Origin: Flavobacteriia bacterium
GTDB lineage: Bacteria > Bacteroidota > Bacteroidia > Flavobacteriales_D > Crocinitomicaceae
Assembly: GCA_947462925.1 (NCBI GenBank)
Contig: CANHQP010000010.1
Span: forward strand, 13,664-77,663
Direction of reading: 5' to 3'
Length of the DNA stretch: 64,000 bases
The translations under genes and the position numbers were made by a program. Shown piece by piece: positions 18,140 through 48,094 of the stretch; the stretch's first letter is position 1; each line of letters begins with the position of its first letter. The notes beneath the pieces are model-generated. The model saw only the letters and a list, made by a program, of their open reading frames with translations, was not told where the DNA came from and did no database searches.

Positions 18140-18229
18140 TTTTTCTGCTTGAGTATAGGTAATTTTATAGCTTTGTATTCGAATTTTCATTGCATAAATT
18201 GCTTTCAATACAAAAATAGTCTTAATTCA

Positions 18230-31566: not shown

Positions 31567-32464
31567 ATATTATTTGAATTACTTAGACGAATTAGAGTCA
31601 GAAGCAATCTTCGTTCTAAGAGAAGTTGCAGCACAATTTGAAAATCCTGTAATTTTATTTTCAGGAGGAAAAGATTCAATTGTAGTTACATATTTAGCTC
31701 AAAAAGCTTTCTACCCTGCGAAAATGCCGTTCGCTTTGTTGCATGTTGACACGGGACATAACTTTCCCGAAACGATAGAATTTAGAGACAAATTGGTTAA
31801 TTCATTAGGTGTTCAACTATTGGTAGGTTCTGTGCAAGATTCTATTGATGATGGAAGAGTTGCTGAGGAAAAAGGCAAAAATGCATCTAGAAATGTATTG
31901 CAAATTACCACTTTGCTAGATACTGTTGAAAAATACAAAATCGATTGTGCGATTGGTGGCGGAAGAAGAGACGAAGAAAAAGCAAGAGCAAAAGAACGTT
32001 TTTTCTCACACAGAGATGAATTTGGACAATGGGATCCAAAAAATCAAAGACCTGAATTGTGGAATCTATTTAATGGAAAACAATTCAAAGGTGAACACTT
32101 TAGAGCATTCCCTATTTCAAACTGGACAGAAATGGATGTTTGGAATTACATCAATCGTGAGCAATTAGCTATACCTTCTTTATATTTTGCGCACGAAAGA
32201 GAAGTAATTTGGAGAGATGATGCTTGGATTCCACTTTCAGAACACATCAAGCTTGATGCAAATGAAATAGTTTCTACTAAAAGAATCAGATTTAGAACTT
32301 TAGGTGATATTACAATTACAGGAGGTATCGAATCTGACGCAGATACATTAGAAAAAATTGTTGATGAAGTTAGTACAATGAGATTAACTGAAAGAGGAAA
32401 TAGATCTGATGATAAAAGATCTGAAAGCGCTATGGAAGATAGAAAACGCGAAGGATATTTTTAA
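31559..32464 (+). CDS. cysD: Sulfate adenylyltransferase subunit 2
   Basis: PP-loop FSGGKDS and blocks LHVDTGHNFPE, GGRRDEEKARAKERFFS, MRLTERG. ATG 31559 overlaps the cysC stop by 8 nt. Confidence 0.9.
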   Translation: MNKYYLNYLDELESEAIFVLREVAAQFENPVILFSGGKDSIVVTYLAQKAFYPAKMPFALLHVDTGHNFPETIEFRDKLVNSLGVQLLVGSVQDSIDDGRVAEEKGKNASRNVLQITTLLDTVEKYKIDCAIGGGRRDEEKARAKERFFSHRDEFGQWDPKNQRPELWNLFNGKQFKGEHFRAFPISNWTEMDVWNYINREQLAIPSLYFAHEREVIWRDDAWIPLSEHIKLDANEIVSTKRIRFRTLGDITITGGIESDADTLEKIVDEVSTMRLTERGNRSDDKRSESAMEDRKREGYF

Positions 32465-32492: not shown

Positions 32493-33749
32493 ATGGAATT
32501 ACATAACAGTCAATTATTGCGTTTTACAACTGCAGGTAGTGTAGATGATGGTAAAAGTACGCTTATCGGAAGATTACTTTATGACTCAAAATCAATTTTT
32601 GAAGATCAACTTTCATCAATAGAAACAACTTCAAAGAAAAAAGGGCACGAAGGTGTCGACTTGGCTCTTTTTACCGATGGTTTGAGAGACGAACGTGAGC
32701 AAGGTATTACGATTGATGTTGCATACAGATATTTTACCACTCCAAAACGTAAATTTATCATTGCAGATACTCCTGGACACATCCAATATACCAGAAACAT
32801 GGTAACTGGAGCATCTACAGCGAATGCCGCAATCATTTTAATTGATGCTAGAAATGGTGTTATTGAACAAACAAAAAGACACTCTTTTATTGCATCTTTA
32901 CTTCAAATTCCACACATTATTGTTTGCGTAAACAAAATGGATTTAGTGGAATACAGTGAAAAAAGATTCAATGAAATCGTTGAAGAGTTTGAAGTAATCT
33001 CTTCAAAATTAATGATTAAAGACGTCCATTTTATTCCAATCAGTGCATTGGATGGAGACAACGTTGTTAATCGCTCTGAAAATATGCCTTGGTTCAGTGG
33101 TGCGCCAATGTTGCATACTTTAGAAACACTTCACATTAGCAGCGATATCAATAAAGTTGATGCTCGTTTCCCTGTTCAAACCGTTATTCGTCCGCAATCT
33201 GATGAACATAGAGACTACAGAGGTTATGCTGGTAGATTAGAAAGTGGAATTTTAAGAGTTGGTGACGACATTACAGTACTACCTTCAGGATTTACATCGA
33301 AAATCAAGTCAATTAATTGTTTCGAAACTAATTATCAAGAAGCATTTGCACCAATGTCTGTATCTATAACTTTAGAAAACGATATCGATATTAGCAGAGG
33401 TGATATGATTGTAAGATCAAATAATCAACCAACTTGTTCGCAAGAGTTTGATGTCATGATTTGTTGGTTAAATAACAATTCTGCACGTCCCGGAGCAAAA
33501 TATTCAATCAAGCATACGAGTAACGATCAAAAAGCAATTATCAAGGAAGTTGTTTACAAAATGGATATCAACGCCATTGAAAGAAATAACGAAGATAAAT
33601 CTATCAATATGAATGACATTTGTAGAGTTAAAATTAGAACTACAAAGCCATTAATGATTGACGAATATAGAGATAATCGTATGACTGGAAGTATCATTTT
33701 AGTTGATGATGCAACCAATGAAACAGTTGCCGCAGGGATGGTAATCTGA
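32493..33749 (+). CDS. cysN: Sulfate adenylyltransferase subunit 1 (GTPase)
   Basis: GTPase motifs G1 GSVDDGKST, G3 DTPGH and G4 NKMD. There is no fused APS-kinase domain. Confidence 0.9.
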   Translation: MELHNSQLLRFTTAGSVDDGKSTLIGRLLYDSKSIFEDQLSSIETTSKKKGHEGVDLALFTDGLRDEREQGITIDVAYRYFTTPKRKFIIADTPGHIQYTRNMVTGASTANAAIILIDARNGVIEQTKRHSFIASLLQIPHIIVCVNKMDLVEYSEKRFNEIVEEFEVISSKLMIKDVHFIPISALDGDNVVNRSENMPWFSGAPMLHTLETLHISSDINKVDARFPVQTVIRPQSDEHRDYRGYAGRLESGILRVGDDITVLPSGFTSKIKSINCFETNYQEAFAPMSVSITLENDIDISRGDMIVRSNNQPTCSQEFDVMICWLNNNSARPGAKYSIKHTSNDQKAIIKEVVYKMDINAIERNNEDKSINMNDICRVKIRTTKPLMIDEYRDNRMTGSIILVDDATNETVAAGMVI

Positions 33750-33773: not shown

Positions 33774-34568
33774 ATGTCAGATTTAAATTTACTAAAAATT
33801 GCGATAGCTGCCGCGCTTGAAGCTGGTGAAAAAATCATGGAAATCTACGAAACCGAAGATTTTGGTGTAGATTTTAAAAGTGACAATTCCCCACTAACAA
33901 AAGCTGATGTTGCTTCTCATAATATTATTGAAAGTCATTTACTTACAACAAATATCCCAATTTTATCTGAAGAAGGGAAAAATATTCCATACGAAGATAG
34001 AAAGGATTGGAAGCAACTTTGGATAGTTGACCCAATAGACGGAACAAAAGAATTTATCAAAAGAAATGGAGACTTCACAGTTAATATTGCTTTGATTGAA
34101 AATCAAATTCCCGTTTTAGGTGTGATCTATACTCCTGTTTTAAATGAGTTGTTTTTCTCAACAAAAGAAAGTGGTGCATTCAAAGTAATTACTACCTCTC
34201 ATTCAGATGATTTCCAGTATTTACAAACAAATGCTATAAAACTTCCAATTGAAACAATTAAAGAGGCTTTCACAGTCGTTGCCAGTAAATCTCACATGTC
34301 TGTCGAAACAGAAGACTATGTCAAGGAACTGGAAAAAACACACGGAAAGGTTGAATTGATTTCCAGAGGAAGTTCATTAAAACTTTGCATGGTGGCAGAA
34401 GGAAAAGCGGATTGTTATCCACGTTTTGCTCCTACAATGGAATGGGATACAGCGGCTGGACAAGCTATTTGCATGCATGCAGGTTTTGAGGTGATCGATT
34501 GGTCAACTCAAAAGCAAATGCTTTACAATAGAGAAAATTTATTAAATAATTGGTTCTTAGTAAGATGA
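33774..34568 (+). CDS. cysQ: 3'(2'),5'-bisphosphate nucleotidase (PAP phosphatase)
   Basis: Inositol-monophosphatase superfamily motifs: [24 protein letters not shown]. Confidence 0.85.
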
Positions 34569-35440
34569 AAGGTATAGTTTTAGCTGGTGGTTCAGGCACG
34601 CGTTTGTTTCCAATTACAAAAGGAGTTTCCAAACAGTTACTTCCGATTTATGATAAACCAATGATTTACTATCCAATATCAGTTTTGATGTTGGCTGGAA
34701 TTAGAGAAATACTTATTATTTCAACGCCACAAGATCTTCCAAATTTTGAAAAATTATTGGGTGATGGAAGTGATTTTGGAGTAAAGTTTAGCTACAAAGT
34801 ACAACCAAGTCCAGATGGATTGGCCCAAGCGTTTATCCTAGGTGAAGAATTTATTGGTTCGGATGATGTTTGTCTTGTATTAGGAGATAATATTTTCTAT
34901 GGACACGGACTGACAGAACTTTTAAAATCAGCTAAATCAAATGTAATCGATAAAGGAAATGCGACGGTATTTGGCTATTATGTAAATGATCCTGAACGAT
35001 ATGGTGTTGCTGAATTTGATAATACTGGTAAAGTAGTTTCTATCGAAGAAAAGCCGCTTTCGCCAAAATCAAATTACGCTGTTGTAGGTTTGTATTTTTA
35101 TCCAAATGAAGTGATTGAAATCGCAAAATCAATCAAACCTTCTGAACGTGGAGAACTTGAAATTACGACAGTAAATGAAGTGTTTCTCTCAAAAGAAAAT
35201 TTAAAGGTTGAATTGATGGGACGAGGATACGCTTGGTTAGATACAGGAACACATGATTCTTTAATTGAAGCAAGTAGTTTTATTCAAACAATTGAAAAAC
35301 GTCAAGGTTTGAAAGTGGCTTGTTTAGAGGAAATTGCTTTCGATCAAGGATTTATTTCAAAGGAAAAAGTTTTGGACCTTGCAAAACCGCTTGCTAAAAC
35401 TGGTTACGGTCAATATTTAATTAAAAAAGTTTCAAAGTGA
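34565..35440 (+). CDS. rfbA: Glucose-1-phosphate thymidylyltransferase
   Basis: [18 protein letters not shown] and YDKPMIYYP blocks. ATG 34565 forms an ATGA overlap with the cysQ stop. Confidence 0.95.
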
Positions 35441-35985
35441 ATATAACAGAAACAAATATTGACGGTTTGGTTATCATTGAACCAAAGGTTTTTGGCGATG
35501 CTCGCGGATATTTCATGGAAACATTCCAAAAAAATACATTTAATTCAAACGTAACAGAAACTGAATTCATTCAAGACAATGAATCGAAATCCTCCAAAGG
35601 AGTTTTAAGAGGTTTACATTTTCAACTTCCACCCTATCAGCAAGCAAAATTGGTTAGGGTTATTGAAGGCGAAGTATTGGATGTTGCCGTAGATTTGAGA
35701 AAAGATTCAAAAACCTATGGTAAACATTATTCGATTTTGTTGTCAGGCGAAAATAAAAAGCAATTTTTTGTTCCAAGAGGATTTGCACATGGATTTGTTG
35801 TTTTAAGTGAAACTGCTATTTTCAGTTATAAAGTCGACAATCTATATGCTCCGACGCATGATTCTGGCATTCTGTGGAATGACGAAACATTGAACATTGA
35901 TTGGAATATCGATAGTGCATTGATCCAACTTTCTGAAAAAGACAAAAATTTAAGTTCATTTAAAGACTTTAATAGTCCATTTTAA
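35437..35985 (+). CDS. rfbC: dTDP-4-dehydrorhamnose 3,5-epimerase
   Basis: [18 protein letters not shown] and PRGFAHGF blocks. GTG start in a GTGA overlap with rfbA. Confidence 0.9.
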
Positions 35986-35986
35986 A

Positions 35987-36859
35987 ATGAAAATATTAGT
36001 AACGGGAAAAAATGGTCAATTAGGATCTGAAATCAATTCGTTGGTTACCAATTATCCTCAGCACCATTTTCATTTTACTGGATCTAGTGAATTCAATCTT
36101 TCTAGTAAAGAATCGATGAGTTCATTTTTAAGTAATTACCAGTTCGATTTAATTATCAATTGTGCTGCATACACAGCTGTTGATAAAGCAGAAGACGACT
36201 CTGAAATGGCTGAAATGGTAAATGTTGAAGGAGTTCATTTTTTAGCCGAATATTGCGCTGAAAAGAACATCAAAATCATCCATATTTCAACAGATTATGT
36301 TTTTGATGGTTCCAAAAACACGCCCTATATCGAAAGCGACATTACAAACCCAACAGGAGTTTACGGTGAAACAAAGCGAAAAGGAGAAATCGAATTAATA
36401 AACAGCCGAGCAAATAGCATTATCATCAGAACTTCTTGGGTTTATTCAACTTTTGGAAATAACTTTGTAAAAACGATGTTGAAACTTGGCTCTGAAAGAG
36501 AGAGTTTAAACGTTGTTATAGATCAAATTGGAACGCCAACATATGCCAAAGATTTGGCTAATATATGTTTGACAATTGCCAATCAAATCGACAATTGGAA
36601 ATCTGGTTGTACAATTTATCACTATTCAAATGAAGGCGTGACGAGTTGGTACGACTTTGCACACCAGATCATGTCTTTAGCTAAATTGAAATGTAAGGTC
36701 TCCCCTATTGAAACTTATGAATATCCTACCAAAGCAAAAAGGCCACACTTTTCAGTTTTGAACAAAAACAAAATCCGTACAGATTTCAATTTGGAAATTC
36801 CTAATTGGAAGGAATCATTGCAAAAAATGTTACTAGCAAGTTCTAGGAATCTTAGATAG
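35987..36859 (+). CDS. rfbD: dTDP-4-dehydrorhamnose reductase
   Basis: MKILVTGKNGQLG, NCAAYTAVDKAE, STDYVFDG and YGETKRKGE blocks. Confidence 0.9.
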   Translation: MKILVTGKNGQLGSEINSLVTNYPQHHFHFTGSSEFNLSSKESMSSFLSNYQFDLIINCAAYTAVDKAEDDSEMAEMVNVEGVHFLAEYCAEKNIKIIHISTDYVFDGSKNTPYIESDITNPTGVYGETKRKGEIELINSRANSIIIRTSWVYSTFGNNFVKTMLKLGSERESLNVVIDQIGTPTYAKDLANICLTIANQIDNWKSGCTIYHYSNEGVTSWYDFAHQIMSLAKLKCKVSPIETYEYPTKAKRPHFSVLNKNKIRTDFNLEIPNWKESLQKMLLASSRNLR

Positions 36860-36870: not shown

Positions 36871-38133
36871 ATGAATTTATCTAACATCATAAAGAAACTA
36901 TCAGGACCTGTAATATTTAATATACTTGGTTCATTATTTGGAATTTTATCTACGATAATAATTAGTCGATATTATGGTTCAGAAAAACTAGGAACAATAA
37001 GTTTAAGTTTAAAAATAACCCAAATCTTAATGGTGGTTTCATTATTTGGATTTAGAGAACAAATTATCAAAAACATTTCCATCTACTTAAAAGAAAATGA
37101 TTCACATAGTGCCTCAAACCTTGTGAGTAATATAAAATTCTTTTCTAGAATTAGCTCACTCATTATTACAGCAATAGTTTTAGTCATCCTTTATTTTTTC
37201 TCTATTCTTTTCGACAAAGATAAAAACTTTGTGCCATTCATGCAGATTTTTATCTTTTCACTTGTTTTTATTGTTCAAACAAAGAATAACACTTTTATAC
37301 TTATCTCTATGGGTAAATATAAAAAAAGTGTACTATTTGATGGATTTTATAATACTTTGTTTCTGTTGGTTTTACTACTAATTGTGATACTTTTAAAAAT
37401 TAATGTAACAATTGAAATTTTAGCTGTTGTATATTTTTTGTCTAGAATATTCAATTATGTGACATCGATATACTTATTTCGCAGAAACCCGTTTTTTAAA
37501 AAAATAAAAAATAGGGATTTTTCGTATATTAAAAATGGAAAAGATTTTTTTGCTATTTCTGTTATTAACACATTAATTGCAAATATAGACTTGGTAATTA
37601 TTGGCATCATTTTAAATCCAAAACTAGTTGCTATTTATGCAGTATGTTCTCGAATCTCACAAATTCTTGAACTTGTAACATATGTCCTATCGACTGCGAT
37701 TTCACCCGAGATTGCGACGCTATTTCATGACAAAAATTTTACTCAATTAAAACATGTTATTTTAAAATACATGTCTTTTTCTTTTTTAATTGCGTCTATT
37801 TTTTGTTTGTCTAGTTTGTTCTTAAGTTCTACACTATTAAATCTCTGGGGTGATGATTTTTCAAATTATTCTAAAGAATTAACAATAATGATTATTGCAA
37901 CTTCAATTGGATTCGTTTTTTCTCCCTATGCCAACTTCTTGTCCATGACTGGTCATCAAAAAGTGGAACTCAGGTTAAATTTTATCATTTCAATTATTTT
38001 TATTTTGATATTATTATTTTTAACCATTAACTTTGGATTAATTGGAAGTGCATTAGCTTTTCTTGTTAGAATTTTTTCAATAAATTTTTCAAGATTTTAT
38101 TTTTCGAAACAAATATTAAAAGAGACTATATGA
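36871..38133 (+). CDS. wzx: Wzx-type oligosaccharide flippase (MOP superfamily)
   Basis: 420 aa with ~12 predicted TM helices, placed inside a Wzy-type locus. No strongly conserved motif is expected for this family. Confidence 0.65.
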   Translation: MNLSNIIKKLSGPVIFNILGSLFGILSTIIISRYYGSEKLGTISLSLKITQILMVVSLFGFREQIIKNISIYLKENDSHSASNLVSNIKFFSRISSLIITAIVLVILYFFSILFDKDKNFVPFMQIFIFSLVFIVQTKNNTFILISMGKYKKSVLFDGFYNTLFLLVLLLIVILLKINVTIEILAVVYFLSRIFNYVTSIYLFRRNPFFKKIKNRDFSYIKNGKDFFAISVINTLIANIDLVIIGIILNPKLVAIYAVCSRISQILELVTYVLSTAISPEIATLFHDKNFTQLKHVILKYMSFSFLIASIFCLSSLFLSSTLLNLWGDDFSNYSKELTIMIIATSIGFVFSPYANFLSMTGHQKVELRLNFIISIIFILILLFLTINFGLIGSALAFLVRIFSINFSRFYFSKQILKETI

Positions 38134-38900
38134 TAATCAGTCATAAACACAAATACATCTTCGTTGGAATTCCTTTTTCCGCATCGTCTACGATTTCAAA
38201 AGAATTGCTCGAAAATTATGACGGAGAATTCATTTTAAACAAACACACCAATATACCTACGCTACTTAACGAATTTAAAGGTAATATCAACGAATATTTC
38301 GTTTTTGGAATATACAGATCTCCAATAGAGATAATAAAATCTAGGTATAATAAACTTCGAAACAATCCTGAAAATAGATTTTCAGATGAAAAATTTGCAC
38401 GAAAAAATGGTGGATATGTTTCAGAAAAGTCAAGAAAATTTTCAAAACTAATACGGGAGAACGATTTGACTTTTTTAGAGTATCTAAAATTAAATTATAA
38501 GTTGCTTCCCTACAATAATGAATTTACGATAAATGCACCGTATTTAAATTTTATATTAGATTTTAATAATCTTGAAAATGATTTTGAGTTAGTTCTAAGA
38601 AAAATAGGATTAAAAATGGCAACAAATCTCGACAAGACAAATTCCACCAAAAAACGAAGTGACATAGATTATAATGTTCCTGAATCTATTATTTCTAAAT
38701 ATTTTGCTCCCTTTCTAAAATATAATTCAAAGTATATTCCTCATTATTCTGAGCCAAAAGTCAATTACTTTTTTTATTTAGTTTTCCTATTAACAAATAA
38801 AATGCGTGCAAAAAGGACTTTAAGTGCTGATAAATATAGAACACTAAAAAATGACCTACACTTCTCTGAAAATAAGTTTTTAAGGAATAAAATAAAATAA
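38130..38900 (+). CDS. Divergent sulfotransferase-like protein (Sulfotransfer_2-like; PAPS-loop lysine missing)
   Basis: KYIFVGIPFSASSTISKEL aligns by eye with the 5'-PSB loop (IPKTGGTS), but Lys is replaced by Phe. FGIYRSPIEIIKSRY resembles the 3'-PB motif RxPxxRxxSxY. ATGA overlap with wzx. Confidence 0.4.
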   Translation: MIISHKHKYIFVGIPFSASSTISKELLENYDGEFILNKHTNIPTLLNEFKGNINEYFVFGIYRSPIEIIKSRYNKLRNNPENRFSDEKFARKNGGYVSEKSRKFSKLIRENDLTFLEYLKLNYKLLPYNNEFTINAPYLNFILDFNNLENDFELVLRKIGLKMATNLDKTNSTKKRSDIDYNVPESIISKYFAPFLKYNSKYIPHYSEPKVNYFFYLVFLLTNKMRAKRTLSADKYRTLKNDLHFSENKFLRNKIK

Positions 38901-39219
38901 TCATTTTTATGCGAAATCATCAAATTTACTTTTGGATTTGTTTGTGCGTCTGCTCTTTTTTATTAGTGCGCAAATTGTTTACGATTAAATTTTCAATTAT
39001 AAAATATATTTCGTCAGCACTAATACTATTTATTTATCGTCTTTTTTACGTCATTTAAAGACAAATCAGCTATTTTCAATCTGACATTATTCTTATTGTG
39101 CCTTTCAATTATTTCTATTGTTTATCCAAATTCAATTAAAAGCTCAAATAAACGGCCGAAAAATATATGAGAAAGCGTTTATGTAAAATATTGAAAGCAA
39201 ATTCTAATATAAAATTGAT

Positions 39220-40131
39220 ATGACAGAAAAAAGTTTTAAAGATAAAACATTAATTTTAGTTGTTGGTGTTCACAAAGCTGCAACAACTTCCTTTTATGAA
39301 TACCTTACAAATCAAGAAGAAATATTTACTCCTAGCATTAAGGAACTACATTTTTTCACACCATTGGTTTACAATTCTAATGTGGAGTTAAACATCAATA
39401 AATATTTAAAATATTTTGAGAACACAACGAAAAAACATATACTCGATGTAAGTCCGTCTTATTTTTATGGCGGAAACGTAATAATAGATGAAATAAGAAA
39501 GTATACCGACCGAGTTAAAATTGTTCTCATTTTGCGTGATCCTACCGAAAGATTTATATCTTTTTACAAACAAGGAATAAAAACGGGTAGAATAAAGAAC
39601 AAAATGTCACTTTCTGCTTATTTCGAGCAATGCAAAATCGAGCATTCCAAATACTTGGAAAATAAAATTCACTATGACACATTTACCAACAGAGGGTTGC
39701 GAGAAGGATGTTATTCTCTCTACATTAATGAATGGTTAACGAATTTCAAAGAAAATCTACATATAATATTTTTTGAAGATTTAGTTAAGGATAGTAAAGA
39801 AGAAATGGATATTTTTGCTGAATCAGCAAATCTGAAATTGAATTTAAATCAAGTTTCTTTTGAAGCAGTAAATGTATCAAGAAAACCAAGAAGTCAATTT
39901 TTGGGAAAAATAAAATCAAAATTATTTAGACAAAATGAATCCTTTTTAAGAAAAAATAAAAAATTGAAAGACTTCTTGAAAAAATTGTACAATTCAATTA
40001 ATACCACTGAATATAAAAAAGAAGCATACATAGAAGAAAAATTGAAAATTTCTGAGTTTTATGAACAATATAATAAGAAATTAGTAAATATATTAACTAA
40101 TAAAGCTGAAAAAATTAAAAAATGGAAATAA
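39220..40131 (+). CDS. PAPS-dependent sulfotransferase
   Basis: 5'-PSB loop LILVVGVHKAATTSFYEYL and 3'-PB motif LILRDPTERFISFY. No signal peptide or TM segment seen. Confidence 0.7.
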   Translation: MTEKSFKDKTLILVVGVHKAATTSFYEYLTNQEEIFTPSIKELHFFTPLVYNSNVELNINKYLKYFENTTKKHILDVSPSYFYGGNVIIDEIRKYTDRVKIVLILRDPTERFISFYKQGIKTGRIKNKMSLSAYFEQCKIEHSKYLENKIHYDTFTNRGLREGCYSLYINEWLTNFKENLHIIFFEDLVKDSKEEMDIFAESANLKLNLNQVSFEAVNVSRKPRSQFLGKIKSKLFRQNESFLRKNKKLKDFLKKLYNSINTTEYKKEAYIEEKLKISEFYEQYNKKLVNILTNKAEKIKKWK

Positions 40132-40294
40132 ACAACATTGCTCTTCTATCGGATTGTTTCACAAAAGTAGAAAACTAAAAAAACTCCAATCAGCAACAGA
40201 AGATAAATTAAAAAATTAAAAGTTTTTGAGTTTGAAAAATATTAAAATAACAATAAATTGAAATTTTAATAGTGTTGTTAAATTTAAATAAAAA

Positions 40295-41500
40295 ATGAAT
40301 TACCTCATTATACTTTATATAGTCTCCATCTTCAATGTTTTTTACTTGACACCAGTATCAATCTTTGCTGATATTTATATACAAGCGTTTTCTTTATTAG
40401 GGATATTCACTATCTTCAGCCACAGATATTACAAACAAAAAAGCACTAGATATTTGATATTTTCACTAATAGTATTAATTATATCTTCTGTTTTTTCCTC
40501 TATATTATTTTTAAACCAAGATGGTATTTCAGCATTAATTGCTACACAAAATCTCTTCAAAGGATTTTCTGTATTTTATTTTGTCCAAAATATTAAATCA
40601 AATAAAATTGACTTAACACTTGTATTAAAAAGCTTGATAAGAATAGTTTGGTATTTTACCATATTCCTAACATTTGCTTCCTTAACAAAATTTGCATTCA
40701 CTTTTATCTCTCCGGTTTCTGGAAACCAGCTTGAAATTACAGCTGATAAATATTCAAAAGATTTACTGTACCTTGGTGAAATGTATTTTTTAGCAAAATA
40801 TTTTAAAACAGGTAAATTCATCAATATAATTTATTTGGGGCTAATTTTTACTTCAACTCAACTTTACGATATTCAAAGGGGTGATTTCATCTTTATGATT
40901 GCTATTTTGATTATTTGCTTGTTTCTTTATCGTAAATACTTTTCATCCTTCAAGATTTATTTAATAGCACCAATATTTATAGTTTTACTAATAAATTCAT
41001 TTAATAATTCGGAAATAAAAAGTAACATCACTAATAAATTTGGACAGATGTTGATGGTTTTCAATGCAGAAGAATCTGGTAAGATTGATGATGCGTCTAT
41101 TTTTGTTAGATTAAAGGAGATTGACTTTGCTGTAAATGGTTTCATGGAAAGTCCGATTTCAGGTAAAGGACTTATTAGAAGTTCTAAACAAAAAGATTTA
41201 ATTGGTGACGTATACTTCTATACAGGTGATATCGGAATTTATGGTATATTATTTACATTTGGAATAATTGGGATGGTTATTCTCTCTTATTACGTCATTT
41301 GGGCGATAAAAATTAAATATAGGCAACTAAATATAGTTTTTTCTGGATTTTATATATACACCATTTATATATTGCTTTACACTCTTAAAGATGGATTTAT
41401 TATGTTCAATATAACACAATTTATTTTTTGTGTTCTCTTAACAAAACTTTCTCTCGAACATTCATTAAAACACAGAAATCATGTCTCAATTGCAAATTAA
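40295..41500 (+). CDS. wzy: Wzy-type polysaccharide polymerase / O-antigen ligase-like membrane protein
   Basis: 401 aa with ~10 TM helices and one larger loop (NAEESGKIDDASIFVRLKEIDFAVNGF). Placed in a Wzx/Wza/Wzc locus. Confidence 0.55.
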   Translation: MNYLIILYIVSIFNVFYLTPVSIFADIYIQAFSLLGIFTIFSHRYYKQKSTRYLIFSLIVLIISSVFSSILFLNQDGISALIATQNLFKGFSVFYFVQNIKSNKIDLTLVLKSLIRIVWYFTIFLTFASLTKFAFTFISPVSGNQLEITADKYSKDLLYLGEMYFLAKYFKTGKFINIIYLGLIFTSTQLYDIQRGDFIFMIAILIICLFLYRKYFSSFKIYLIAPIFIVLLINSFNNSEIKSNITNKFGQMLMVFNAEESGKIDDASIFVRLKEIDFAVNGFMESPISGKGLIRSSKQKDLIGDVYFYTGDIGIYGILFTFGIIGMVILSYYVIWAIKIKYRQLNIVFSGFYIYTIYILLYTLKDGFIMFNITQFIFCVLLTKLSLEHSLKHRNHVSIAN

Positions 41501-42374
41501 ACCGAATCTCTTCATTGTCGGCGCACCAAAATCAGGAACTACCTTTTTGTATAACAAATTGCAAATATTTAGTGAATTTTATTTTACTGAAATAAAAGAA
41601 TTAAACTATTTTTCATATGATGAAATAGCAGAATCAAAATCTTACTACAATGATTACAAAGTAAAAGAAATAGAACGGTACTTAAATTTCTTTAAAAATG
41701 CTGATAAACAAAAATATAAAGTAGATACAAGTGTTTCCTATTTTTCATATCCTAGGACAGCAAATAGAATTTTTGAATTCAATCCTGAATCGAAAATTAT
41801 TGCTATATTGAGAAATCCTATTAAAAGGGCATTTTCGCACTACCAAATGGATGTTAGAATGGGGCATGCAAAACACTCTTTCAAAAATTATATTGAAGAC
41901 AAAAATGAACATCAAGCTCATTACCATCAATATATTACAAACAGTTTATATCATAGTAATATTTCTAGATATATCGAAAAATTTGGAACCAAAAACGTTT
42001 TAGTACTAATATTAGAAGAAATAGAAGTGGAATTGCCAAAGTTGTTTGATTTTTTGAATATCGAAAATAGCTCATCTGAAATTGACACAGGAGATAAAAT
42101 TAATGTTAATAAGAAACCTAAAAATTTTATTTCGAAATTTTTTCAAAATAATCGCAGATTAGCAGAGAAATTGAAAAAATATACTCCAGAATATTTGGTC
42201 AATTTTTACAAAAAATATTTTTATGAAAATGCAGAAATAATTACAATAACTGATGAAGAATATGAAATTTGCAGAAAACTACTTTCTAAAGAAGTAGATG
42301 AATTATCCACCTTATTAAACAAAAATTTATCGAACTTATGGCTGATGAATTTACCTCAAAAAAACAAAAATTAA
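41481..42374 (+). CDS. PAPS-dependent sulfotransferase (canonical motifs)
   Basis: 5'-PSB loop LFIVGAPKSGTTFLYNKL and 3'-PB motif AILRNPIKRAFSHYQM. 20-nt overlap with wzy. No signal peptide. Confidence 0.8.
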   Translation: MSQLQIKPNLFIVGAPKSGTTFLYNKLQIFSEFYFTEIKELNYFSYDEIAESKSYYNDYKVKEIERYLNFFKNADKQKYKVDTSVSYFSYPRTANRIFEFNPESKIIAILRNPIKRAFSHYQMDVRMGHAKHSFKNYIEDKNEHQAHYHQYITNSLYHSNISRYIEKFGTKNVLVLILEEIEVELPKLFDFLNIENSSSEIDTGDKINVNKKPKNFISKFFQNNRRLAEKLKKYTPEYLVNFYKKYFYENAEIITITDEEYEICRKLLSKEVDELSTLLNKNLSNLWLMNLPQKNKN

Positions 42375-43492
42375 TGCCAATAAAACATTTAAAAATAGCT
42401 TTGATAGATCCTGTTGGGGGGAAAGGTGGAATGGATTTTTACGACTATGGGCTCGCACAAGGTCTTGCTAGTAACAACTGTGAAGTATTTTATTTCACTT
42501 GCAATCAAACCCGTGAAATAAAAAACAATAATATAAATACAATATTTTTCTTTGGGGAAATTTGGAATAAAAAAAAGTTTTTTAAGTTAATCTTACTATT
42601 AAATGGTTATAAAAAAGCTTTCAAATATTGTAAAAAAAATAAAATAGAAATTATTCATTTTCAATTTTTTAGTTTAAAAATACCAAATCTAATCGCTCTC
42701 CTAATGTGTAAGTTTTTTGGTTTAAAAAGAATAGTAACACTTCACGACATTGACTCATTTAGAGGGAAAGAAAGATTATTTCTCCAAAAAAAAGCATTTT
42801 CATTGACTCAGAAATTAATCGTTCATAATCAGTTTTCTTTAAATGAAATTACCAAAAAAGGAATTTCAAAACAGAAGGTAGCGATAATTCCCCACGGAAA
42901 CTATATTCCTTTCGTTGAAAAAGTAACAGCTAATGAACCTTCAAGAATATTAAATTTGTTATTTTTTGGACAAATCAAAGAAGTAAAAGGATTAGAAATT
43001 CTACTCAACGCCTTTGCAAAAGCTTACAAAGAAAATGGAAACATCAGATTGACAATTGCAGGAAAACCATGGGGAACAAGTTCTGAAAAATATTCAAAAA
43101 TGATTTCTAACTTGAAAATAGAAAAAGTAGTTCATACCAATTTTAGTTATATTCCAAATGATGAAATTCATTTATATTTTCAAAAAAGTGATGTGGTAGT
43201 TTTGCCATATAAAAAGATTTACCAAAGTGGTGTGTTGTTACTTTCAATGAGCTACGGGCGCGTATGTTTGTGTTCAGATTTAGATGCTTTTAAAGAAATT
43301 GTAGTAGATAATGAAACAGGTTATATTTTCGAAAATAAAAATGTAGACTCACTCTCAAAAAAAATTCTCGAAATTTATAAAGACAAAAGTGATATAACTA
43401 GAATTGAAAATAACGCACAAGAATTACTAAAGAAAAATTTTGGATGGAACAACATAGCTATAATGTCAATAGAACTTTATCAAACAGTATAA
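42374..43492 (+). CDS. GT4-family (GT-B, Glycos_transf_1) glycosyltransferase
   Basis: The C-terminal half has the typical LLFFGQIKEVKGLE ... VVVLPY ... ETGYIF (EX7E region). ATG 42374 gives a TAATG overlap with the preceding stop. Confidence 0.75.
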   Translation: MPIKHLKIALIDPVGGKGGMDFYDYGLAQGLASNNCEVFYFTCNQTREIKNNNINTIFFFGEIWNKKKFFKLILLLNGYKKAFKYCKKNKIEIIHFQFFSLKIPNLIALLMCKFFGLKRIVTLHDIDSFRGKERLFLQKKAFSLTQKLIVHNQFSLNEITKKGISKQKVAIIPHGNYIPFVEKVTANEPSRILNLLFFGQIKEVKGLEILLNAFAKAYKENGNIRLTIAGKPWGTSSEKYSKMISNLKIEKVVHTNFSYIPNDEIHLYFQKSDVVVLPYKKIYQSGVLLLSMSYGRVCLCSDLDAFKEIVVDNETGYIFENKNVDSLSKKILEIYKDKSDITRIENNAQELLKKNFGWNNIAIMSIELYQTV

Positions 43493-43571
43493 AATTATAT
43501 TAAGTGTAACTCGCCTGATAAATGAAAATCAATGAAGAGTTTTGAAATCTATACTTAAAAATAAATTACAG

Positions 43572-44921
43572 ATGAAAAATAAAATCGCTATCATTTTGCT
43601 GGTATTTGTTGGATTATTTTCTTGTAATAATTTATCCGATAGCATACAGCTAAGTGCTTCAAATGTCTCTAACGAAAAAAATAAAATAAATTTTGAAATT
43701 ACTGATAGTACAAGATTTTTCATCGCAAATGAACTAACAAAGATATCTTATACAGGGAATTATCCAACTTCATTTCCTATAATCGCAATTTTTTTAGAAG
43801 AATCGGTTAGGAAACAAAATGAAGGGTCAAAATCAGAAACAGAATTAAAGATAATTAAAGATGTTTTAATAAAGGGCCGCCCTAAAAGTTACTTTAAAAT
43901 AGATATTGGAGAAAAAATAACCACAATTTCAGCTGCAGAAGACGAAGGCTTGCACAATGGCATAAATTATTTCAGAAAATTAATTTTAGAAAAATCAGGA
44001 AAAATACCTTTGATGAAATATGAAGATTTCTCTGCAATTGAAAACCGGACACTTCATTTAGTAATGAGAAACGATTCAATAGAAAAATTTTATTCTTACA
44101 TAGATTCAGCAAGATATTATAATTACAATAAAATTATACTAGAAATTTCAAATCAAATTGATCTTCAGTTTTTTAATAGAATTGAAGTAACGAAAAAAAA
44201 ATTAAATAGAAAAGATTTTTTGAAGTTTATTGATTATACAATAAAATCAGGATTTGATATTATTCCTGAAATTAAACTACTAACAAAACAAAAAAAAACA
44301 TTTTCAAATAAGTATCCAGAATTGCTATTTAACGATCAAACCTACGACCCGAGAAACAGTAAAGTTTATGAAAAAATTTTCCAGCTAATAGATGAAGTAA
44401 TTACTTTAATACCATGTAATTCAATTCACATTGGGCATGATGAGGTATATGGATTCGGAGAAAAAGAAGCTGAAAAAAAAATCAAGATTTTGCCCGCTAG
44501 TTTATTTGCAGAAGATGTTAATATATTGTTTCAATATCTAAAAAGCAAAAATAAAAAAACGCTGATTTGGGGAGATATGATTTGGAGCAGGAAAGAGTTT
44601 CCAAATGAGAGAGGTAATAAATTAAGTCTGGAAAATTATGAAAACGTTGTAAATTTAATCCCAAGGGAAATAATAATTTGTGATTGGCATTACAAATCAA
44701 AATTCTCTGAATTTCCAACTTTTAAAAAATTTGATGATTTGGGATTTGAAGTATGGGGAGCAACTTGGGATGACTTGTTAGTTATGTCCAATTTCACTGC
44801 ATACGCCAAGAAACAAAAATTAAAAAAAGAATTTGGAATGATAGCTACCACTTGGAATAGAGACATTAAAACAGTATATGAAATCATCAGAAAATCAGGA
44901 AAAAAATTCTGGAATGAATAA
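43572..44921 (+). CDS. Lipoprotein with a GH20-like (beta-N-acetylhexosaminidase-type) catalytic domain
   Basis: Lipobox LLVFVGLFSC. TIM-barrel-like blocks are in GH20 order: RTLHLVM, YNKIILEI, IIPEIKLL, NSIHIGHDEV (Asp-Glu pair), LIWGDM, CDWHY. Confidence 0.5.
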   Translation: MKNKIAIILLVFVGLFSCNNLSDSIQLSASNVSNEKNKINFEITDSTRFFIANELTKISYTGNYPTSFPIIAIFLEESVRKQNEGSKSETELKIIKDVLIKGRPKSYFKIDIGEKITTISAAEDEGLHNGINYFRKLILEKSGKIPLMKYEDFSAIENRTLHLVMRNDSIEKFYSYIDSARYYNYNKIILEISNQIDLQFFNRIEVTKKKLNRKDFLKFIDYTIKSGFDIIPEIKLLTKQKKTFSNKYPELLFNDQTYDPRNSKVYEKIFQLIDEVITLIPCNSIHIGHDEVYGFGEKEAEKKIKILPASLFAEDVNILFQYLKSKNKKTLIWGDMIWSRKEFPNERGNKLSLENYENVVNLIPREIIICDWHYKSKFSEFPTFKKFDDLGFEVWGATWDDLLVMSNFTAYAKKQKLKKEFGMIATTWNRDIKTVYEIIRKSGKKFWNE

Positions 44922-45993
44922 GTCAGTTGCAATTATAGGATCTGTCGGAATACCCGCAAAATATGGTGGTTTTGAGACATTAGCAGAATATTTAACGAAG
45001 AATTTATCAGATAAGGTAGATTTTACTGTTTATTGCTCAGCAAAAGCATATCCTAAAAAATTAAAAGAGTACAATCATAGCAAACTAGAATATATTCCGT
45101 TGAAAGCAAACGGTATACAGAGTATTCCCTACGACATTATTTCCCTGCTTAAGGTCAAGAGAAAAACAAAAACGGTTCTTATTTTAGGAGTTGCTTGTGG
45201 TATAATTTTGCCTTTATATCGATTGTTTTATTCAAAAAAGCTCATTGTAAATATAGATGGTCTTGAATGGAAGCGAGAAAAGTGGGGAAAAGTAGCAAAA
45301 TGGTACTTGAAGTTTTCAGAAAAAGTTGCTGTTAAATCAGCAGATGTAGTTATTGCAGACAATAAAGTTATCCAGGATTATGTTCAAAATGAATATGGAA
45401 AAAATGCTGTATTAATAGAATATGGAGCTGATCATTCGATATCATTACCACTTTCCGATGAAATCAAAAAAGAATTTTCTTTTACCAATTTTGAGTATGC
45501 ATTTAAAGTTTGTAGAATTGAGCCCGAAAATAATATTAAAATGATTTTGGAGGCATTTTCAAAGCAAACAAAATATCATTTAGTTATTGTAGGGAATTGG
45601 GAAAACAGTGAATATGGAATAGACTTATTTTCAAAATTTAGTAAGTTTGAAAATATTCATCTTTGTGATCCGATATATGATTTATTGATATTGAACCAAT
45701 TAAGAAGTAATGCTTTTCTATATATTCATGGACACAGTGCCGGTGGTACCAATCCTTCGCTTGTCGAGGCTATGTACTTATCTATACCTATCATATCTTT
45801 TGATATAAACTACAATAGAGAAACAACAGAAAATAAAGCATATAGCTATTTTAAAAATTCAACAGAATTAGTAGAAACTTTGAAAAATATTGATAAAACA
45901 AATCTAATAACTTCAAAAAATGCGCTATTTATAGTTGCTGAAAGAAGATATCAGTGGGAAAATATAACAGATAAGTATTTAAAAAAATTTTAA
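44914..45993 (+). CDS. DUF1972-type GT4 glycosyltransferase (RgpA/WchF-like, probable rhamnosyltransferase)
   Basis: N-terminus KSVAIIGSVGIPAKYGGFETLAEYL is the DUF1972 signature. C-terminus HGHSAGGTNPSLVEAM is the GT-B donor site. Overlaps the preceding gene by 8 nt. Confidence 0.7.
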   Translation: MNKSVAIIGSVGIPAKYGGFETLAEYLTKNLSDKVDFTVYCSAKAYPKKLKEYNHSKLEYIPLKANGIQSIPYDIISLLKVKRKTKTVLILGVACGIILPLYRLFYSKKLIVNIDGLEWKREKWGKVAKWYLKFSEKVAVKSADVVIADNKVIQDYVQNEYGKNAVLIEYGADHSISLPLSDEIKKEFSFTNFEYAFKVCRIEPENNIKMILEAFSKQTKYHLVIVGNWENSEYGIDLFSKFSKFENIHLCDPIYDLLILNQLRSNAFLYIHGHSAGGTNPSLVEAMYLSIPIISFDINYNRETTENKAYSYFKNSTELVETLKNIDKTNLITSKNALFIVAERRYQWENITDKYLKKF

Positions 45994-46107: not shown

Positions 46108-47232
46108 ATGAAGCCATCAATATTTGAGATGATAATTGTTTTAATGTCCTCATTTTTGGTCAGCTATATGCTTTATCCAAAAATAATAAGTGTTGTGTCA
46201 TTCAAAAAATTAATGGATAAGCCCAATGATAGGAGCTCACATTCAACAGCAACTCCTAGTTTGGGCGGTATCGCTTTTTATATCGTTCTCATTCTATCTT
46301 TTTATTTTCTTGAACCTTTTGATAAATACAATACAATTCCCTCTTTGATTCCAGGGTTGACAATTCTATTTATAATTGGATTAAAGGATGATTTAGTTGT
46401 GATCTCACCACTGACCAAACTTGGTGCTGAAATAGTCGCAGCAACTTTTTTAGTATTACATCCAAGTTTTGAGATTGAAAGTCTTCATGGATTTTTTGGT
46501 TTGTACGAAGTAAGTAAATTTATTACAGTTCCATTAAGTGTTTTCATTGTTATAGTAATTATCAATTCTTTTAACTTGATAGATGGAATCGACGGTCTTG
46601 CAGCTACAATTGGCACAGTAATATTTGGAACTTTTGGTGCTATATTTTACATGAGCCATTCCTATCTCCTATTGGGAGTTTGTATTGTAATGATAGGTTG
46701 TTTAACCGCATTTTTAAGATTCAATATTTCGCACTCAAAGAAAATATTTATGGGGGACACAGGTTCTCTAATTGTTGGATTTATAATCGGAATGTTAGTA
46801 TTAAGATTCTTAGCATTAACAGATGATAAAATTGCTTTATTACCATTCAAAACAGACAATTATCCATACATTGTGCTTGCAATACTAATTGTTCCATTTT
46901 TTGACACAGCGCGGGTTTTTACAATTCGAATAATGAATAAACGAGGTCCATTTTCGCCAGACCGTAATCACATTCATCACTTACTCATTGATTTCCTTCA
47001 TCTTTCACACATTAAAGCAAGTATTTTTTTAGGGGTATTTAATTTGATATTTGTTTCTATATTTTTATCAATCTCAATATTTTTTAGTCAAAATATAATG
47101 TTTGCTATTAGCGTAATTGCTGTTTTACTTTTAATTTATTTTTTCTTTTTGATAAATAAAAATACAAATGCAATAAAAGCGAAATCAAAAATAAAGAAGC
47201 AATTCAAAAAAAAACTGAGTAGTTATTTATAA
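46108..47232 (+). CDS. Polyprenyl-phosphate N-acetylhexosamine-1-phosphate transferase (WecA/MraY family initiating enzyme)
   Basis: ~10 TM helices. PNPT motifs GLKDD, NSFNLIDGIDGLA and MGDTGS. Confidence 0.8.
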   Translation: MKPSIFEMIIVLMSSFLVSYMLYPKIISVVSFKKLMDKPNDRSSHSTATPSLGGIAFYIVLILSFYFLEPFDKYNTIPSLIPGLTILFIIGLKDDLVVISPLTKLGAEIVAATFLVLHPSFEIESLHGFFGLYEVSKFITVPLSVFIVIVIINSFNLIDGIDGLAATIGTVIFGTFGAIFYMSHSYLLLGVCIVMIGCLTAFLRFNISHSKKIFMGDTGSLIVGFIIGMLVLRFLALTDDKIALLPFKTDNYPYIVLAILIVPFFDTARVFTIRIMNKRGPFSPDRNHIHHLLIDFLHLSHIKASIFLGVFNLIFVSIFLSISIFFSQNIMFAISVIAVLLLIYFFFLINKNTNAIKAKSKIKKQFKKKLSSYL

Positions 47233-47279: not shown

Positions 47280-47287
47280 TAATTTTG
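47280..47287 (+). promoter_or_regulatory. Candidate internal -7 box (TAnnTTTG) ahead of wza-wzc
   Basis: taattttg lies 25 nt upstream of ATG 47312, in a 79-nt gap. The nearest TTTG (47264-47267) is spaced only 12 nt away, which is sub-optimal. Confidence 0.25.
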
Positions 47288-47311
47288 CCATTTTTAAAAC
47301 AAGTCATCTAC

Positions 47312-48094
47312 ATGAAGTACATATATTTATTTTTGCTTGCCTTATCAGTATTTTCTTGCGGTATAAAAAAGAAAATCATTTACTTCAATGGTGCTAATTA
47401 TCAAAATGATACAATTAACAAAAGTCAACTTTCAAATCTACCAAAGTACACGCTCATTTTCAAGAAAGATGATTTGGTATATATTGATATAAATTCAGCT
47501 GACATAGAATCATTGAAACCATTCATGAAAGAAGATATGTCTGCGGGTAATCAAATGCCAGGATACGTAAATGGTATTTCAGCTAAAGGTGGTTATTTAA
47601 TTGATGAAAATGGAAAAATTAATTTTCCTTTGATAGGAGAAATTCAATTGGTCGGTCTCACAAGAACTGAAGCGACAAACTTGATTCAGAATAAATTAAG
47701 AGAGTTCATCAATGATGCAATTGTAACACTTAGAATTCAAAATTTCAAAATTACAATTTTGGGAGATGTTAAAATCCCAGGAACTTATAATATTCCTAAT
47801 GAAAGATTAACACTAATTGAAGCAATTGGTCTTGCAGGTGACCTTAATATTACTGGCGTTAGAAATAATGTTCTTGTAATTAGAGAAGAAAATGGAATTA
47901 AAAAGGAGTACCGTGTAGATCTAACTAAAAATGATATTTTTACTTCACCAGTTTACTACCTAAATCAAAATGACGTAGTATACGTTGAGCCAAATAGGGC
48001 GAAAAGAAATACATCCATTGTTAGTTCTACAGCTGGCATTTTTATTTCTGTAGCCTCGCTTGTTATTACTACAATTAATGTTATTATTAAATAA
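47312..48094 (+). CDS. wza: Wza-type outer-membrane polysaccharide export protein
   Basis: Lipoprotein signal LALSVFSCG. Poly_export motif (INFPLIGEIQLVGLTRTEA), SLBB domain and a C-terminal hydrophobic helix. The ORF-track TTG at 47285 was replaced by ATG 47312. Confidence 0.8.
   Translation: MKYIYLFLLALSVFSCGIKKKIIYFNGANYQNDTINKSQLSNLPKYTLIFKKDDLVYIDINSADIESLKPFMKEDMSAGNQMPGYVNGISAKGGYLIDENGKINFPLIGEIQLVGLTRTEATNLIQNKLREFINDAIVTLRIQNFKITILGDVKIPGTYNIPNERLTLIEAIGLAGDLNITGVRNNVLVIREENGIKKEYRVDLTKNDIFTSPVYYLNQNDVVYVEPNRAKRNTSIVSSTAGIFISVASLVITTINVIIK

Follow-up and report, generated by a model that had tools for sequence, protein, structure and literature searches.

A capsule locus with its own PAPS supply in a Crocinitomicaceae-like bacterium encodes two canonical sulfotransferases and a predicted sulfotransferase-fold protein of a clade that lacks the loop lysine

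Bacterial sulfated polysaccharides have long been held to be rare. In recent papers they are still described as essentially confined to cyanobacteria (PMC8205485, PMC13390465). In the xss cluster for synechan of Synechocystis sp. PCC 6803, which is Wzx/Wzy-dependent, two sulfotransferases of distinct subfamilies are encoded, and the published model places modification on the cytoplasmic side before flipping (PMC8205485). The capsule cluster of Vibrio sp. KMM 8419 contains a second copy of cysN, cysD and cysC along with several sulfotransferases and rhamnose genes, and the combination of sulfotransferases with genes for 3′-phosphoadenosine-5′-phosphosulfate (PAPS) is regarded in that report as a hallmark of sulfated polysaccharide synthesis (PMC11641403). 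In Actinoplanes missouriensis, the Wzx/Wzy cluster wps-1 encodes a glycoside hydrolase as well as two sulfotransferases that belong to different families, and the phenotype depends on both of the latter (PMC13390465). Pontiella is also a published case of sulfotransferases in such clusters (PMC7356697). Here, a capsule locus is described in a 64,000-nucleotide stretch of contig CANHQP010000010.1 (the window), from a Crocinitomicaceae-like Bacteroidota bacterium, with emphasis on three of its open reading frames (ORFs): ORF1, ORF2 and ORF3.

The region 36871-42374 forms the serotype-specific core of a capsule locus of the Wzx/Wzy-dependent type, which occupies 25 kb of one strand (+), from an UpxY gene to Wzc (25527-50478). 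Wzx, the Wzc domains, Wza and a WecA-like initiating enzyme are all detected in this one locus; the match to Wzy is weak. The polymer made by the locus is most likely a sulfated polysaccharide. A Wzx/Wzy-dependent sulfated-capsule architecture of this kind is already known from synechan, Vibrio and Actinoplanes. What appears new is the clade to which ORF1 belongs, in which the catalytic loop can be without any basic residue: full-text searches on sulfotransferase motifs and bacterial sulfated polysaccharides returned no description of one. After rmlD, the gene order is wzx, ORF1 (38130-38900), ORF2 (39220-40131), wzy and ORF3 (41481-42374), with the neighbours assigned by Pfam. The first-pass annotation, made from the letters alone, had described three sulfotransferase-like genes interleaved with wzx and wzy; all three are on the + strand where it placed them, and every motif that it quoted is present. 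In the reading that we prefer, to which we assign a probability of about 55%, the locus makes a sulfated capsule and ORF1 is an active PAPS-dependent sulfotransferase in which the charge at the leaving group comes from K75 or K38. Fold and family placement, conservation, genomic setting and the lack of export signals are what the data below show; from these we infer enzyme activity, the acceptor, the role of these lysines and the composition of the repeat unit.

The locus has its own PAPS supply module, all four members of which score over curated cut-offs. These are CysC, the adenosine-5′-phosphosulfate (APS) kinase that makes PAPS (30946..31566, +; NCBIfam NF003013, 278 bits against a cut-off of 163); CysD, the small subunit of sulfate adenylyltransferase (31559..32464, +; NCBIfam NF003587, 441 against 195); CysN, its large subunit (32493..33749, +; NF003478, 593 against 590, and TIGR02034, 564 against 336); and CysQ, a 3′(2′),5′-bisphosphate nucleotidase that clears the by-product 3′-phosphoadenosine-5′-phosphate (PAP) (33774..34568, +; TIGR01331, 271 against 229).

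Two of the three candidate sulfotransferases are readily classified. In an alignment with profile hidden Markov models (HMMs), the check that had been proposed for all three proteins, ORF2 (+ strand; Pfam Sulfotransfer_1 E=1e-8, 35.4 bits against a cut-off of 22) and ORF3 (+ strand; Sulfotransfer_1 43.4 bits, cut-off 22; Sulfotransfer_3 44.2 bits, cut-off 27; E ~3.5e-11) score over the cut-off, whereas ORF1 is unmatched and is tied to the fold through its relatives. ORF2 contains GVHKAATTS at residues 16-24 and RDPTERFISFY at 106-116; ORF3 contains GAPKSGTT at 14-21 and RNPIKRAFSHY at 111-121. The two are paralogs (27% identity, E=6e-15). Against sequences of the Protein Data Bank (PDB), ORF3 matches the bacterial sulfotransferase 3rnl (E=6e-24), NDST1 (E=2e-8) and also 3-OST-1, and ORF2 matches heparan 3-OST-5 (E=8e-11) with the motifs aligned. 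Their loop lysines, K19 in ORF2 and K17 in ORF3, align with the loops of 3-OST-5, NDST1 and 3rnl. A K-E-x-H/N-F/Y-F segment (K41-E42 in ORF2, K39-E40 in ORF3) matches the E-x-H-F-F of 3-OST-5 and 3rnl, and K39 and E40 of ORF3 are invariant in an alignment of 23 ORF2/3-type sequences. Its glutamate, E42 or E40, is presumably the catalytic base, from what is established for 3-OST and NDST. The 3′-phosphate motif R-x-P...S (R106...S114 in ORF2, R111...S119 in ORF3) is likewise invariant in the 23 sequences. Based on these features, ORF2 and ORF3 are assigned as canonical Sulfotransfer_1/3 enzymes of the heparan 3-OST/NDST/3rnl type. The heparan 3-OSTs, the NDST domain and 3rnl (PF00685/PF13469) share the loop Lys, the Glu-base segment and the R-x-P...S motif with them, but at just 20-30% identity; moreover, ORF2 and ORF3 would be cytoplasmic, without a Golgi membrane anchor, and their proposed acceptor is a bacterial lipid-linked repeat unit rather than heparan sulfate.

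ORF1 (38130..38900, +) is placed among the sulfotransferases via its relatives as a divergent Sulfotransfer_2-like protein. Its peptides of interest are IPFSASST (residues 14-21), YRSPIEIIKSRY (62-73) and VNYFFYLVFLLT (211-222). The protein itself gives no Pfam match even at E<=1, no NCBIfam match and no PDB sequence match, and BLASTP finds no similarity to ORF2 or ORF3. A word-indexed search with ORF1 returned 25 relatives only, whereas the matches of an exhaustive profile search numbered 228 cluster representatives below E=1e-30, 867 below 1e-10 and 6,496 below 1e-3, in a clade that spans Bacteroidota, Chloroflexota, Pseudomonadota, Cyanobacteria and Planctomycetota. Column counts given for this clade refer to 143 full-length family representatives, 81 of which match Sulfotransfer_2 (PF03567) at E<=0.01 (best E=3.4e-13) and 19 of which match Sulfotransfer_1. 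The link of ORF1 to Sulfotransfer_2, the family of HS2ST, HS6ST and the chondroitin sulfotransferases, thus runs through its relatives, more than half of which score on PF03567. In the family profile, the segment R-N-P-x-D-x-x-x-S aligns to the 3′-phosphate-binding (PB) motif of SULT7A1 and 3rnl; neither ORF1 nor the profile gave anything significant against PDB sequences (best E=0.02, PB motif only). A profile-profile comparison (hhalign) of the ORF1 family with the 23 ORF2/3-type sequences gave 94% probability and E=8e-8 for an alignment confined to the PB motif and the strand that follows it. In the AlphaFold2 (AF2) model of ORF1 (mean predicted local distance difference test score, pLDDT, 88.6), strand 9-12, the loop, helix 19-29, strand 57-62 and helix 65-78 follow one another, and the best Foldseek matches of this model in the PDB are nearly all sulfotransferases, at a level that is not significant (best E=0.04, template-modelling (TM) score ~0.3). 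Taken together, ORF1 is assigned as a predicted sulfotransferase-fold protein of a PF03567-like lineage rather than of PF00685/PF13469. Two earlier statements do not survive this analysis. Since BLASTP finds no similarity to ORF2 and ORF3, and ORF1 falls in a separate PF03567-like clade, "paralog" is the wrong word for it, and a degenerate paralog is not supported; nor does ORF1 keep the spacing of the motifs, as the distance from the loop to the second motif is 47 residues, compared with 87 in ORF2 and 94 in ORF3. The ratio of non-synonymous to synonymous rates (dN/dS) of 0.24 against the near-identical cassette of contig L089 (7 synonymous and 7 non-synonymous differences) supports purifying selection on ORF1, which is counted as a sign of function.

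The absence of a lysine from the ORF1 loop, which had been noticed at the outset, is borne out by alignment. The predicted 5′-phosphosulfate-binding loop, P15-F16-S17-A18-S19-S20-T21 (38172..38192, +), was delimited from column counts and from the alignment to a K-bearing relative, a Sagittula stellata plasmid protein (WP_347100789.1) that is annotated as sulfotransferase family 2 and matches PF03567 with E=3e-13 over profile positions 4-252. This protein begins MILSHKHKFIFICNGKTGTTSI and ORF1 begins MIISHKHKYIFVGIPFSASSTI; their alignment is ungapped, pairs P-F-S-A-S-S of ORF1 with G-K-T-G-T-T, and sets F16 (codon 38175-38177) on the canonical lysine. Across the clade, position 16 is the most variable of the loop, with an entropy of 2.69 bits compared with 0.7-1.5 for positions 15 and 17-20: it is F in 38 representatives, R in 37, H in 30, L in 13, Q in 8, Y in 6, M in 4 and N in 3, and K about once. 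Arg is therefore found in about a quarter of the clade, and about half has no basic residue (F, L, Q, Y, M or N). The rest of the site behaves very differently. Position 15 is P in 130/143 representatives, 17 is S/T in 140/143, 18 is G/A in all 143 and 19 is S/T/C in 141/143; further along, 38 is K in 130/143, 39 is H in 141/143, 63 is R in 142/143, 71 is S/T in 141/143, 171 is N in 135/143 and 173 is T in 133/143. R63, P65 and S71 of the PB motif are present in ORF1 and 99% conserved, with Ile at position 68. His39, which sits between the loop and the PB motif, is presumed to be the catalytic base. Together with its adjoining Lys (K38-H39, 38241..38246, +; from column counts) it is kept in 44/44 and 31/31 members of the subgroups with a non-basic position 16, and across all members that have no basic residue there, H39, R63, S71 and K/R38 are retained at 98-100%, as they are in the Arg- and His-bearing members. 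Judged by these columns, the loss of the loop lysine is real and clade-wide, and the conservation around it does not look like the pattern of a decaying paralog.

Comparison with a sister clade suggests where a compensating charge could lie. A search with two K-bearing relatives revealed a large K-type clade (5,154 proteins at E<=1e-5) that shares the N-terminal signature MI[IL]SHKxKFIF with the clade of ORF1. The two clades, the former represented by the Sagittula protein, also have loop geometry, the R-x-P...S motif and overall length in common; they differ in that, in the clade of ORF1, the loop Lys is replaced, the basic residue of the PB motif (P+3) is lost, and a near-invariant Lys at S+4 and a Lys-His pair are present. 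Position 16 is Lys in 120/120 sister-clade sequences and not Lys in the clade of ORF1; position 68 on the PB helix is Lys in 118/120 and mixed, respectively; and position 75 (S71+4) is Met in 115/120 in the sister clade and Lys/Arg in 132/141 in the clade of ORF1. Counted over all representatives, K/R75 is found in 133/143, and among members with a non-basic position 16 in 79/81. In ORF1, K75 (38352-38354) follows the predicted 3′-phosphate-binding strand-turn-helix R63...S71 (38316..38354 with K75, +), and in the AF2 model it lies in helix 65-78, one turn past S71. The S+4 position corresponds to Phe142 of SULT1A1 and SULT1E1, which forms part of the wall of the acceptor pocket next to the sulfuryl group, and K38-H39 resembles the Lys106-x-His108 pair of mouse estrogen sulfotransferase. 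A catalytic lysine has been relocated in a comparable way in the WNK kinases. Inside the clade of ORF1, no clean position covaries with position 16; the signal appears only against the K-type sister clade. That K75 on the PB helix, or K38 beside the putative His base, is the relocated catalytic lysine and that the clade members are active sulfotransferases is put forward tentatively, at somewhat less than even odds.

The genomic setting of the clade bears on what ORF1 does. The closest relatives of ORF1 (44-71% identity) all lie in capsule loci with cysC, cysD, cysN and cysQ, and in many loci ORF1-type genes accompany these four genes, wzx and one to four canonical sulfotransferases. Members with Q at position 16 (Q-type) are found in polysaccharide loci of Chitinophagales, and R- and H-type members in those of Chloroflexota, Pseudomonadota and Cyanobacteria, in both cases often with cysC or cysN and one to four canonical sulfotransferases. 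Every F-, Q-, Y- or L-type polysaccharide locus that is covered far enough also has canonical sulfotransferases. In addition, about 36 marine Flavobacteriales species hold a lone F- or L-type copy in a syntenic asd-X-lspA-dksA-ileS slot (L007-L041, L055, L059 and L082-L083; for example, L082:10001-10774), with no polysaccharide, cys or other sulfotransferase genes within 10 kb.

Several points weigh against an active ORF1 and against parts of the pathway in which it is placed. ORF1 itself is under every Pfam and NCBIfam threshold, the structural matches of its model are weak, as the Foldseek values above indicate, and no assayed member of its clade was found in the literature. The defining feature of the family, according to a review of polysaccharide sulfotransferases, is a lysine or arginine in the loop (PMC11625862); ORF1 has Phe there. 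The K16/K75 swap separates two clades rather than recurring as covariation, so it is effectively one evolutionary event, and K75 is also kept where position 16 is Arg or His, which makes it a clade feature and not a strict compensation. Because canonical enzymes stand beside the F-, Q-, Y- and L-type members in every polysaccharide locus covered far enough, sulfation there needs no active ORF1. For the wider pathway, no rmlB homolog is present anywhere in the 64,000-nucleotide window, and the assignments of Wzy, WecA, Cps2T, TviB and TviC all score under curated cut-offs.

An unlikely alternative is that ORF1 is a pseudo-sulfotransferase that retains the fold, and may still bind PAPS/PAP or the acceptor, but catalyses no transfer and serves as a scaffold, chaperone or specificity factor for ORF2 and ORF3 or for Wzx. 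This would agree with the treatment of the loop Lys/Arg as catalytic and defining (PMC11625862) when ORF1 has Phe, with the loss in ORF1 of the basic residue 68 of the PB motif that the sister clade keeps, and with the constant presence of canonical enzymes next to the non-basic members in polysaccharide loci. It would also give a meaning to the conserved overlap of wzx and ORF1: the stop codon of wzx shares the sequence ATGA with the start codon of ORF1, both in the window and in L002, and the two genes overlap in L084 too, which suggests translational coupling to Wzx. The first-pass annotation had likewise suggested that the lysine-less protein may be inactive. Pseudoenzymes, though, usually lose several catalytic residues. 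In the members with a non-basic position 16, H39, R63, S71, K38 and the loop Ser/Thr are kept at 98-100%, and since the other PAPS-binding and catalytic positions stay 95-100% conserved, in F, L, Q and Y members as well, simple inactivation is argued against. The lone F- or L-type copies of the marine Flavobacteriales have no other sulfotransferase within 10 kb to assist. A specific need of the non-basic members for a canonical partner was considered and rejected, because Arg/His-16 members co-occur with canonical enzymes too, as detected with HMMs; the co-occurrence is thus not specific to the non-basic members.

It is still less probable that the clade of ORF1 has another chemistry or target, such as APS or an aryl sulfate as donor, or a lipid carrier or envelope acceptor, for which the loop lysine would not be needed. 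The many homologs outside polysaccharide loci, in the asd-X-lspA-dksA-ileS slot, would suit this explanation, as would the clade-specific invariant residues K38, K75, N171, T173 and Y30/G32, which differ from those of the sister clade. The Arg and Ser that bind the 3′-phosphate are, in contrast, the best conserved residues, which favours PAPS over APS as the donor; the nearest relatives of ORF1 are all found in capsule loci with the four cys genes, and no positive sign of another donor is present in the sequences. A lysine-less loop that is an alignment artefact, with K6 or K8 of the segment MIISHKHK as the true lysine of an ordinary enzyme, is very improbable even though this segment lies just ahead of the loop strand and has K/R at position 8 in 129/143 and at position 6 in 109/143 representatives: the MI[IL]SHKxK segment is present in the K-type sister clade alongside the loop lysine, so these lysines pre-date the loss and are not substitutes for it, the loop pairing with the Sagittula protein is ungapped, and the AF2 model puts residues 5-8 in a turn at the opposite end of strand 9-12 from the loop.

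None of the three proteins has a signal peptide or a membrane segment. The Kyte-Doolittle maxima over 19-residue windows are 0.95 for ORF1, 1.01 for ORF2 and 1.22 for ORF3, so that no window reaches 1.6, in agreement with the earlier statement that an N-terminal signal peptide is lacking in all three; as positive controls, Wzx has 94 windows at or above 1.6 and the signal peptide of a GH20-like lipoprotein of the locus reaches 1.82. A hydrophobic stretch near the C-terminus of ORF1 had been pointed out and is indeed present. It was rejected as a membrane anchor: it is too short for a membrane span, its highest window is the 0.95 just given, and it lies inside the confidently modelled helix 213-234. 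The tails of ORF2 and ORF3 hold basic amphipathic segments that would suit peripheral membrane association. Because the three proteins carry no export signal, sulfation at the cytoplasmic face before flipping, as first proposed, is reasonable, and it is the same arrangement as in the synechan model (PMC8205485).

The remaining genes of the locus fit a capsule pathway. At its head lies an UpxY-family (NusG-like) antiterminator gene (25527..26048, +; NCBIfam NF033644, 124 bits against a cut-off of 100; Pfam NusG). An UpxY-type antiterminator at this position is typical for Bacteroidota capsule operons, and the gene marks the true upstream edge of the locus, far outside the region first noted. 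It is followed by a gene for a TviC-like UDP-N-acetylhexosamine (HexNAc)-uronate 4-epimerase of the short-chain dehydrogenase/reductase (SDR) type (26165..27172, +; NF011728 E=7e-106, under the cut-off; Pfam Epimerase) and one for a TviB-like UDP-N-acetylglucosamine 6-dehydrogenase (28819..30099, +; NF011729 E=4e-160, 533 bits against a cut-off of 592; TIGR03026, 388 against 190), with pgi between them; a small cupin gene is also in the locus. The pair points to an acidic sugar that would be a 2-acetamido uronic acid (N-acetylgalactosaminuronic or N-acetylglucosaminuronic acid) rather than glucuronate, and so fits the uronate that had been predicted in the unit. Immediately 5′ of cysC, a predicted membrane protein of the DUF2061 family is encoded (30502..30930, +; Pfam PF09834 E=7e-42), which may take part in the handling of sulfate or PAPS. 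Between cysQ and wzx lie rmlA, rmlC and rmlD of the dTDP-L-rhamnose pathway (34550..36859, +; TIGR01207, TIGR01221 and TIGR01214 over cut-offs). The Wzx flippase (36871..38133, +; Pfam Polysacc_synt 51 bits against a cut-off of 28) and the Wzy-like polymerase (40295..41500, +; Pfam Wzy_C E=2e-6, 28.2 bits, under the cut-off of 31.7) bracket ORF1 and ORF2, which are separated by a non-coding spacer of 319 bp (38901..39219) that is 94% identical, with indels, in L089. In this spacer, no terminator was found, and promoter-like sites are not above the level of shuffled sequence; a hydrophobic ORF of 49 amino acids (38909-39058) was dismissed as a gene since indels shift its frame in L089.

Downstream of ORF3 are a GT4 glycosyltransferase (42338..43492, +; Pfam Glycos_transf_1 E=2e-24), the GH20-like lipoprotein (43542..44921, +; Pfam Glyco_hydro_20 E=9e-6; an N-terminal hydrophobic segment with an LFSC lipobox), which may be an exported polymer-trimming hydrolase, and a DUF1972/GT4 glycosyltransferase (44878..45993, +; Pfam DUF1972 E=6e-32). 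The best NCBIfam match of the latter is the beta-1,4-rhamnosyltransferase Cps2T (E=8e-66, under the cut-off), which makes it a Cps2T-like, putative rhamnosyltransferase. The WecA-like initiating phosphoglycosyltransferase (46108..47232, +; Pfam Glycos_transf_4 E=3e-34; TIGR02380 E=7e-39, under the cut-off), the Wza-like exporter (47285..48094, +; Poly_export and SLBB, detected on a 124-kb metagenome contig identical to the window) and the Wzc-like co-polymerase/tyrosine kinase (48097..50478, +; Wzz, GNVR and AAA_31) complete the locus. The three glycosyltransfer steps that had been listed, WecA-like, GT4 and DUF1972, are thus all found by Pfam/NCBIfam.

From these parts, the following route is proposed. 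CysD/CysN and CysC would make PAPS in the cytoplasm and CysQ would clear PAP. The WecA-like enzyme would start the unit on undecaprenyl phosphate, the Cps2T-like DUF1972 enzyme would probably add rhamnose, and the GT4 enzyme would add a third sugar, possibly the HexNAc uronate from the TviB/TviC-like pair. The three soluble cytoplasmic sulfotransferases would then decorate the lipid-linked unit, with K75, or K38, of ORF1 supplying the charge that normally comes from the loop lysine to stabilize the leaving group, after which Wzx would flip the unit, Wzy would polymerise it and Wzc/Wza would export the polymer. Three glycosyltransferases fit the trisaccharide of the first-pass annotation; its allotment of up to one sulfate per sugar is not a rule, given the six sulfotransferases and two glycosyltransferases of L084.

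In that locus (10001-19479 of a TARA metagenome sequence), wzx is accompanied by six sulfotransferase genes, one a homolog of ORF1 and five matching Pfam Sulfotransfer_1, and by just two glycosyltransferase genes (GT4 and DUF1972) within the 20.8-kb stretch covered, so sulfotransferases can outnumber sugars. Each of the variant cassettes (L002-L006 and L084) has one ORF1-type gene and two to five canonical sulfotransferases. In L002, a Crocinitomicaceae metagenome-assembled genome, the flanks share 93-100% protein identity with the window, whereas in the centre wzx is 83%, ORF1 71%, wzy 51% and ORF3 51% identical. In L089, by comparison, the centre has 97-99.6% DNA identity and rmlD just 89%, with a synonymous divergence (dS) of 0.52 in rmlD versus 0.004-0.1. 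The divergent centre in one genome and the divergent rmlD in the other look like capsule-cassette exchange. The G+C content of the window is 26-29% between 36 and 50 kb, compared with 33-37% in the surroundings. Other details of these loci also vary: the DUF2061-cysC adjacency is found in L002, L004, L089 and L090 and not in L084; L084 has a 351-residue epimerase/dehydratase-family gene between cysQ and rmlA that is taken as rmlB; and related cassettes carry a GH5 (L084:17538-18596) or GH10 (L086:4697-5836) gene at a spot similar to that of the GH20-like gene.

Collectively, the locus and its relatives represent complete, exchangeable sulfated-capsule cassettes in Crocinitomicaceae-like Bacteroidota, among them a metagenome-assembled genome with an isolate name that indicates Lake Mendota; each cassette encodes a PAPS supply of its own as well as three to six sulfotransferases. 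If the clade of ORF1 is active, the loop Lys/Arg signature is incomplete and motif searches under-count polysaccharide sulfotransferases; the clade would in addition be a source of new regioselective enzymes with which sulfated glycans could be made. If the lysine has been relocated, the missed class would include the copy that many marine Flavobacteriales keep in a conserved housekeeping slot. Were the clade inactive instead, it would be, to our knowledge, the first bacterial pseudo-sulfotransferase family, and a flippase-coupled one.

At the level of the enzymes, an Arg in place of the loop Lys is known from TPST. The same replacement occurs in Stf0 and NodH, the NodH motif being written RXG, and the PB motif is given in the same review as P-x-x-R-x-x-S (PMC11625862). 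These three proteins are like the clade of ORF1 in that the loop residue need not be lysine; they keep a basic residue, however, whereas ORF1 and about half of its clade have none, a case that is not in that review, which does state that bacterial sulfotransferases without consensus motifs are likely to be overlooked (PMC11625862). At the level of the locus, wps-1 of Actinoplanes is the case likened by description: it belongs to an actinomycete, and the accessible text mentions no PAPS genes and gives no chemical demonstration of sulfation, but it shares two sulfotransferase families and a hydrolase, GH20-like in the locus described here (PMC13390465). The Vibrio cluster differs in export by an ATP-binding cassette (ABC) transporter of the Kps type, in phylum and in sulfotransferases presented without motif-level analysis; in common with the present one, it is a capsule locus that contains cys genes, rhamnose genes and several sulfotransferase genes (PMC11641403). 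A tblastn search of the plasmid database PLSDB with a cyanobacterial clade member matched no Synechocystis plasmid, only a Sagittula plasmid, so the synechan sulfotransferases XssA and XssE are not closely related to ORF1. The synechan cluster is plasmid-borne in a cyanobacterium, has two sulfotransferases and eight glycosyltransferases, and does not list PAPS genes in its description; what it shares with the present locus is a Wzx/Wzy-dependent cluster, sulfotransferases of distinct subfamilies and a model in which the polysaccharide is modified on the cytoplasmic side (PMC8205485).

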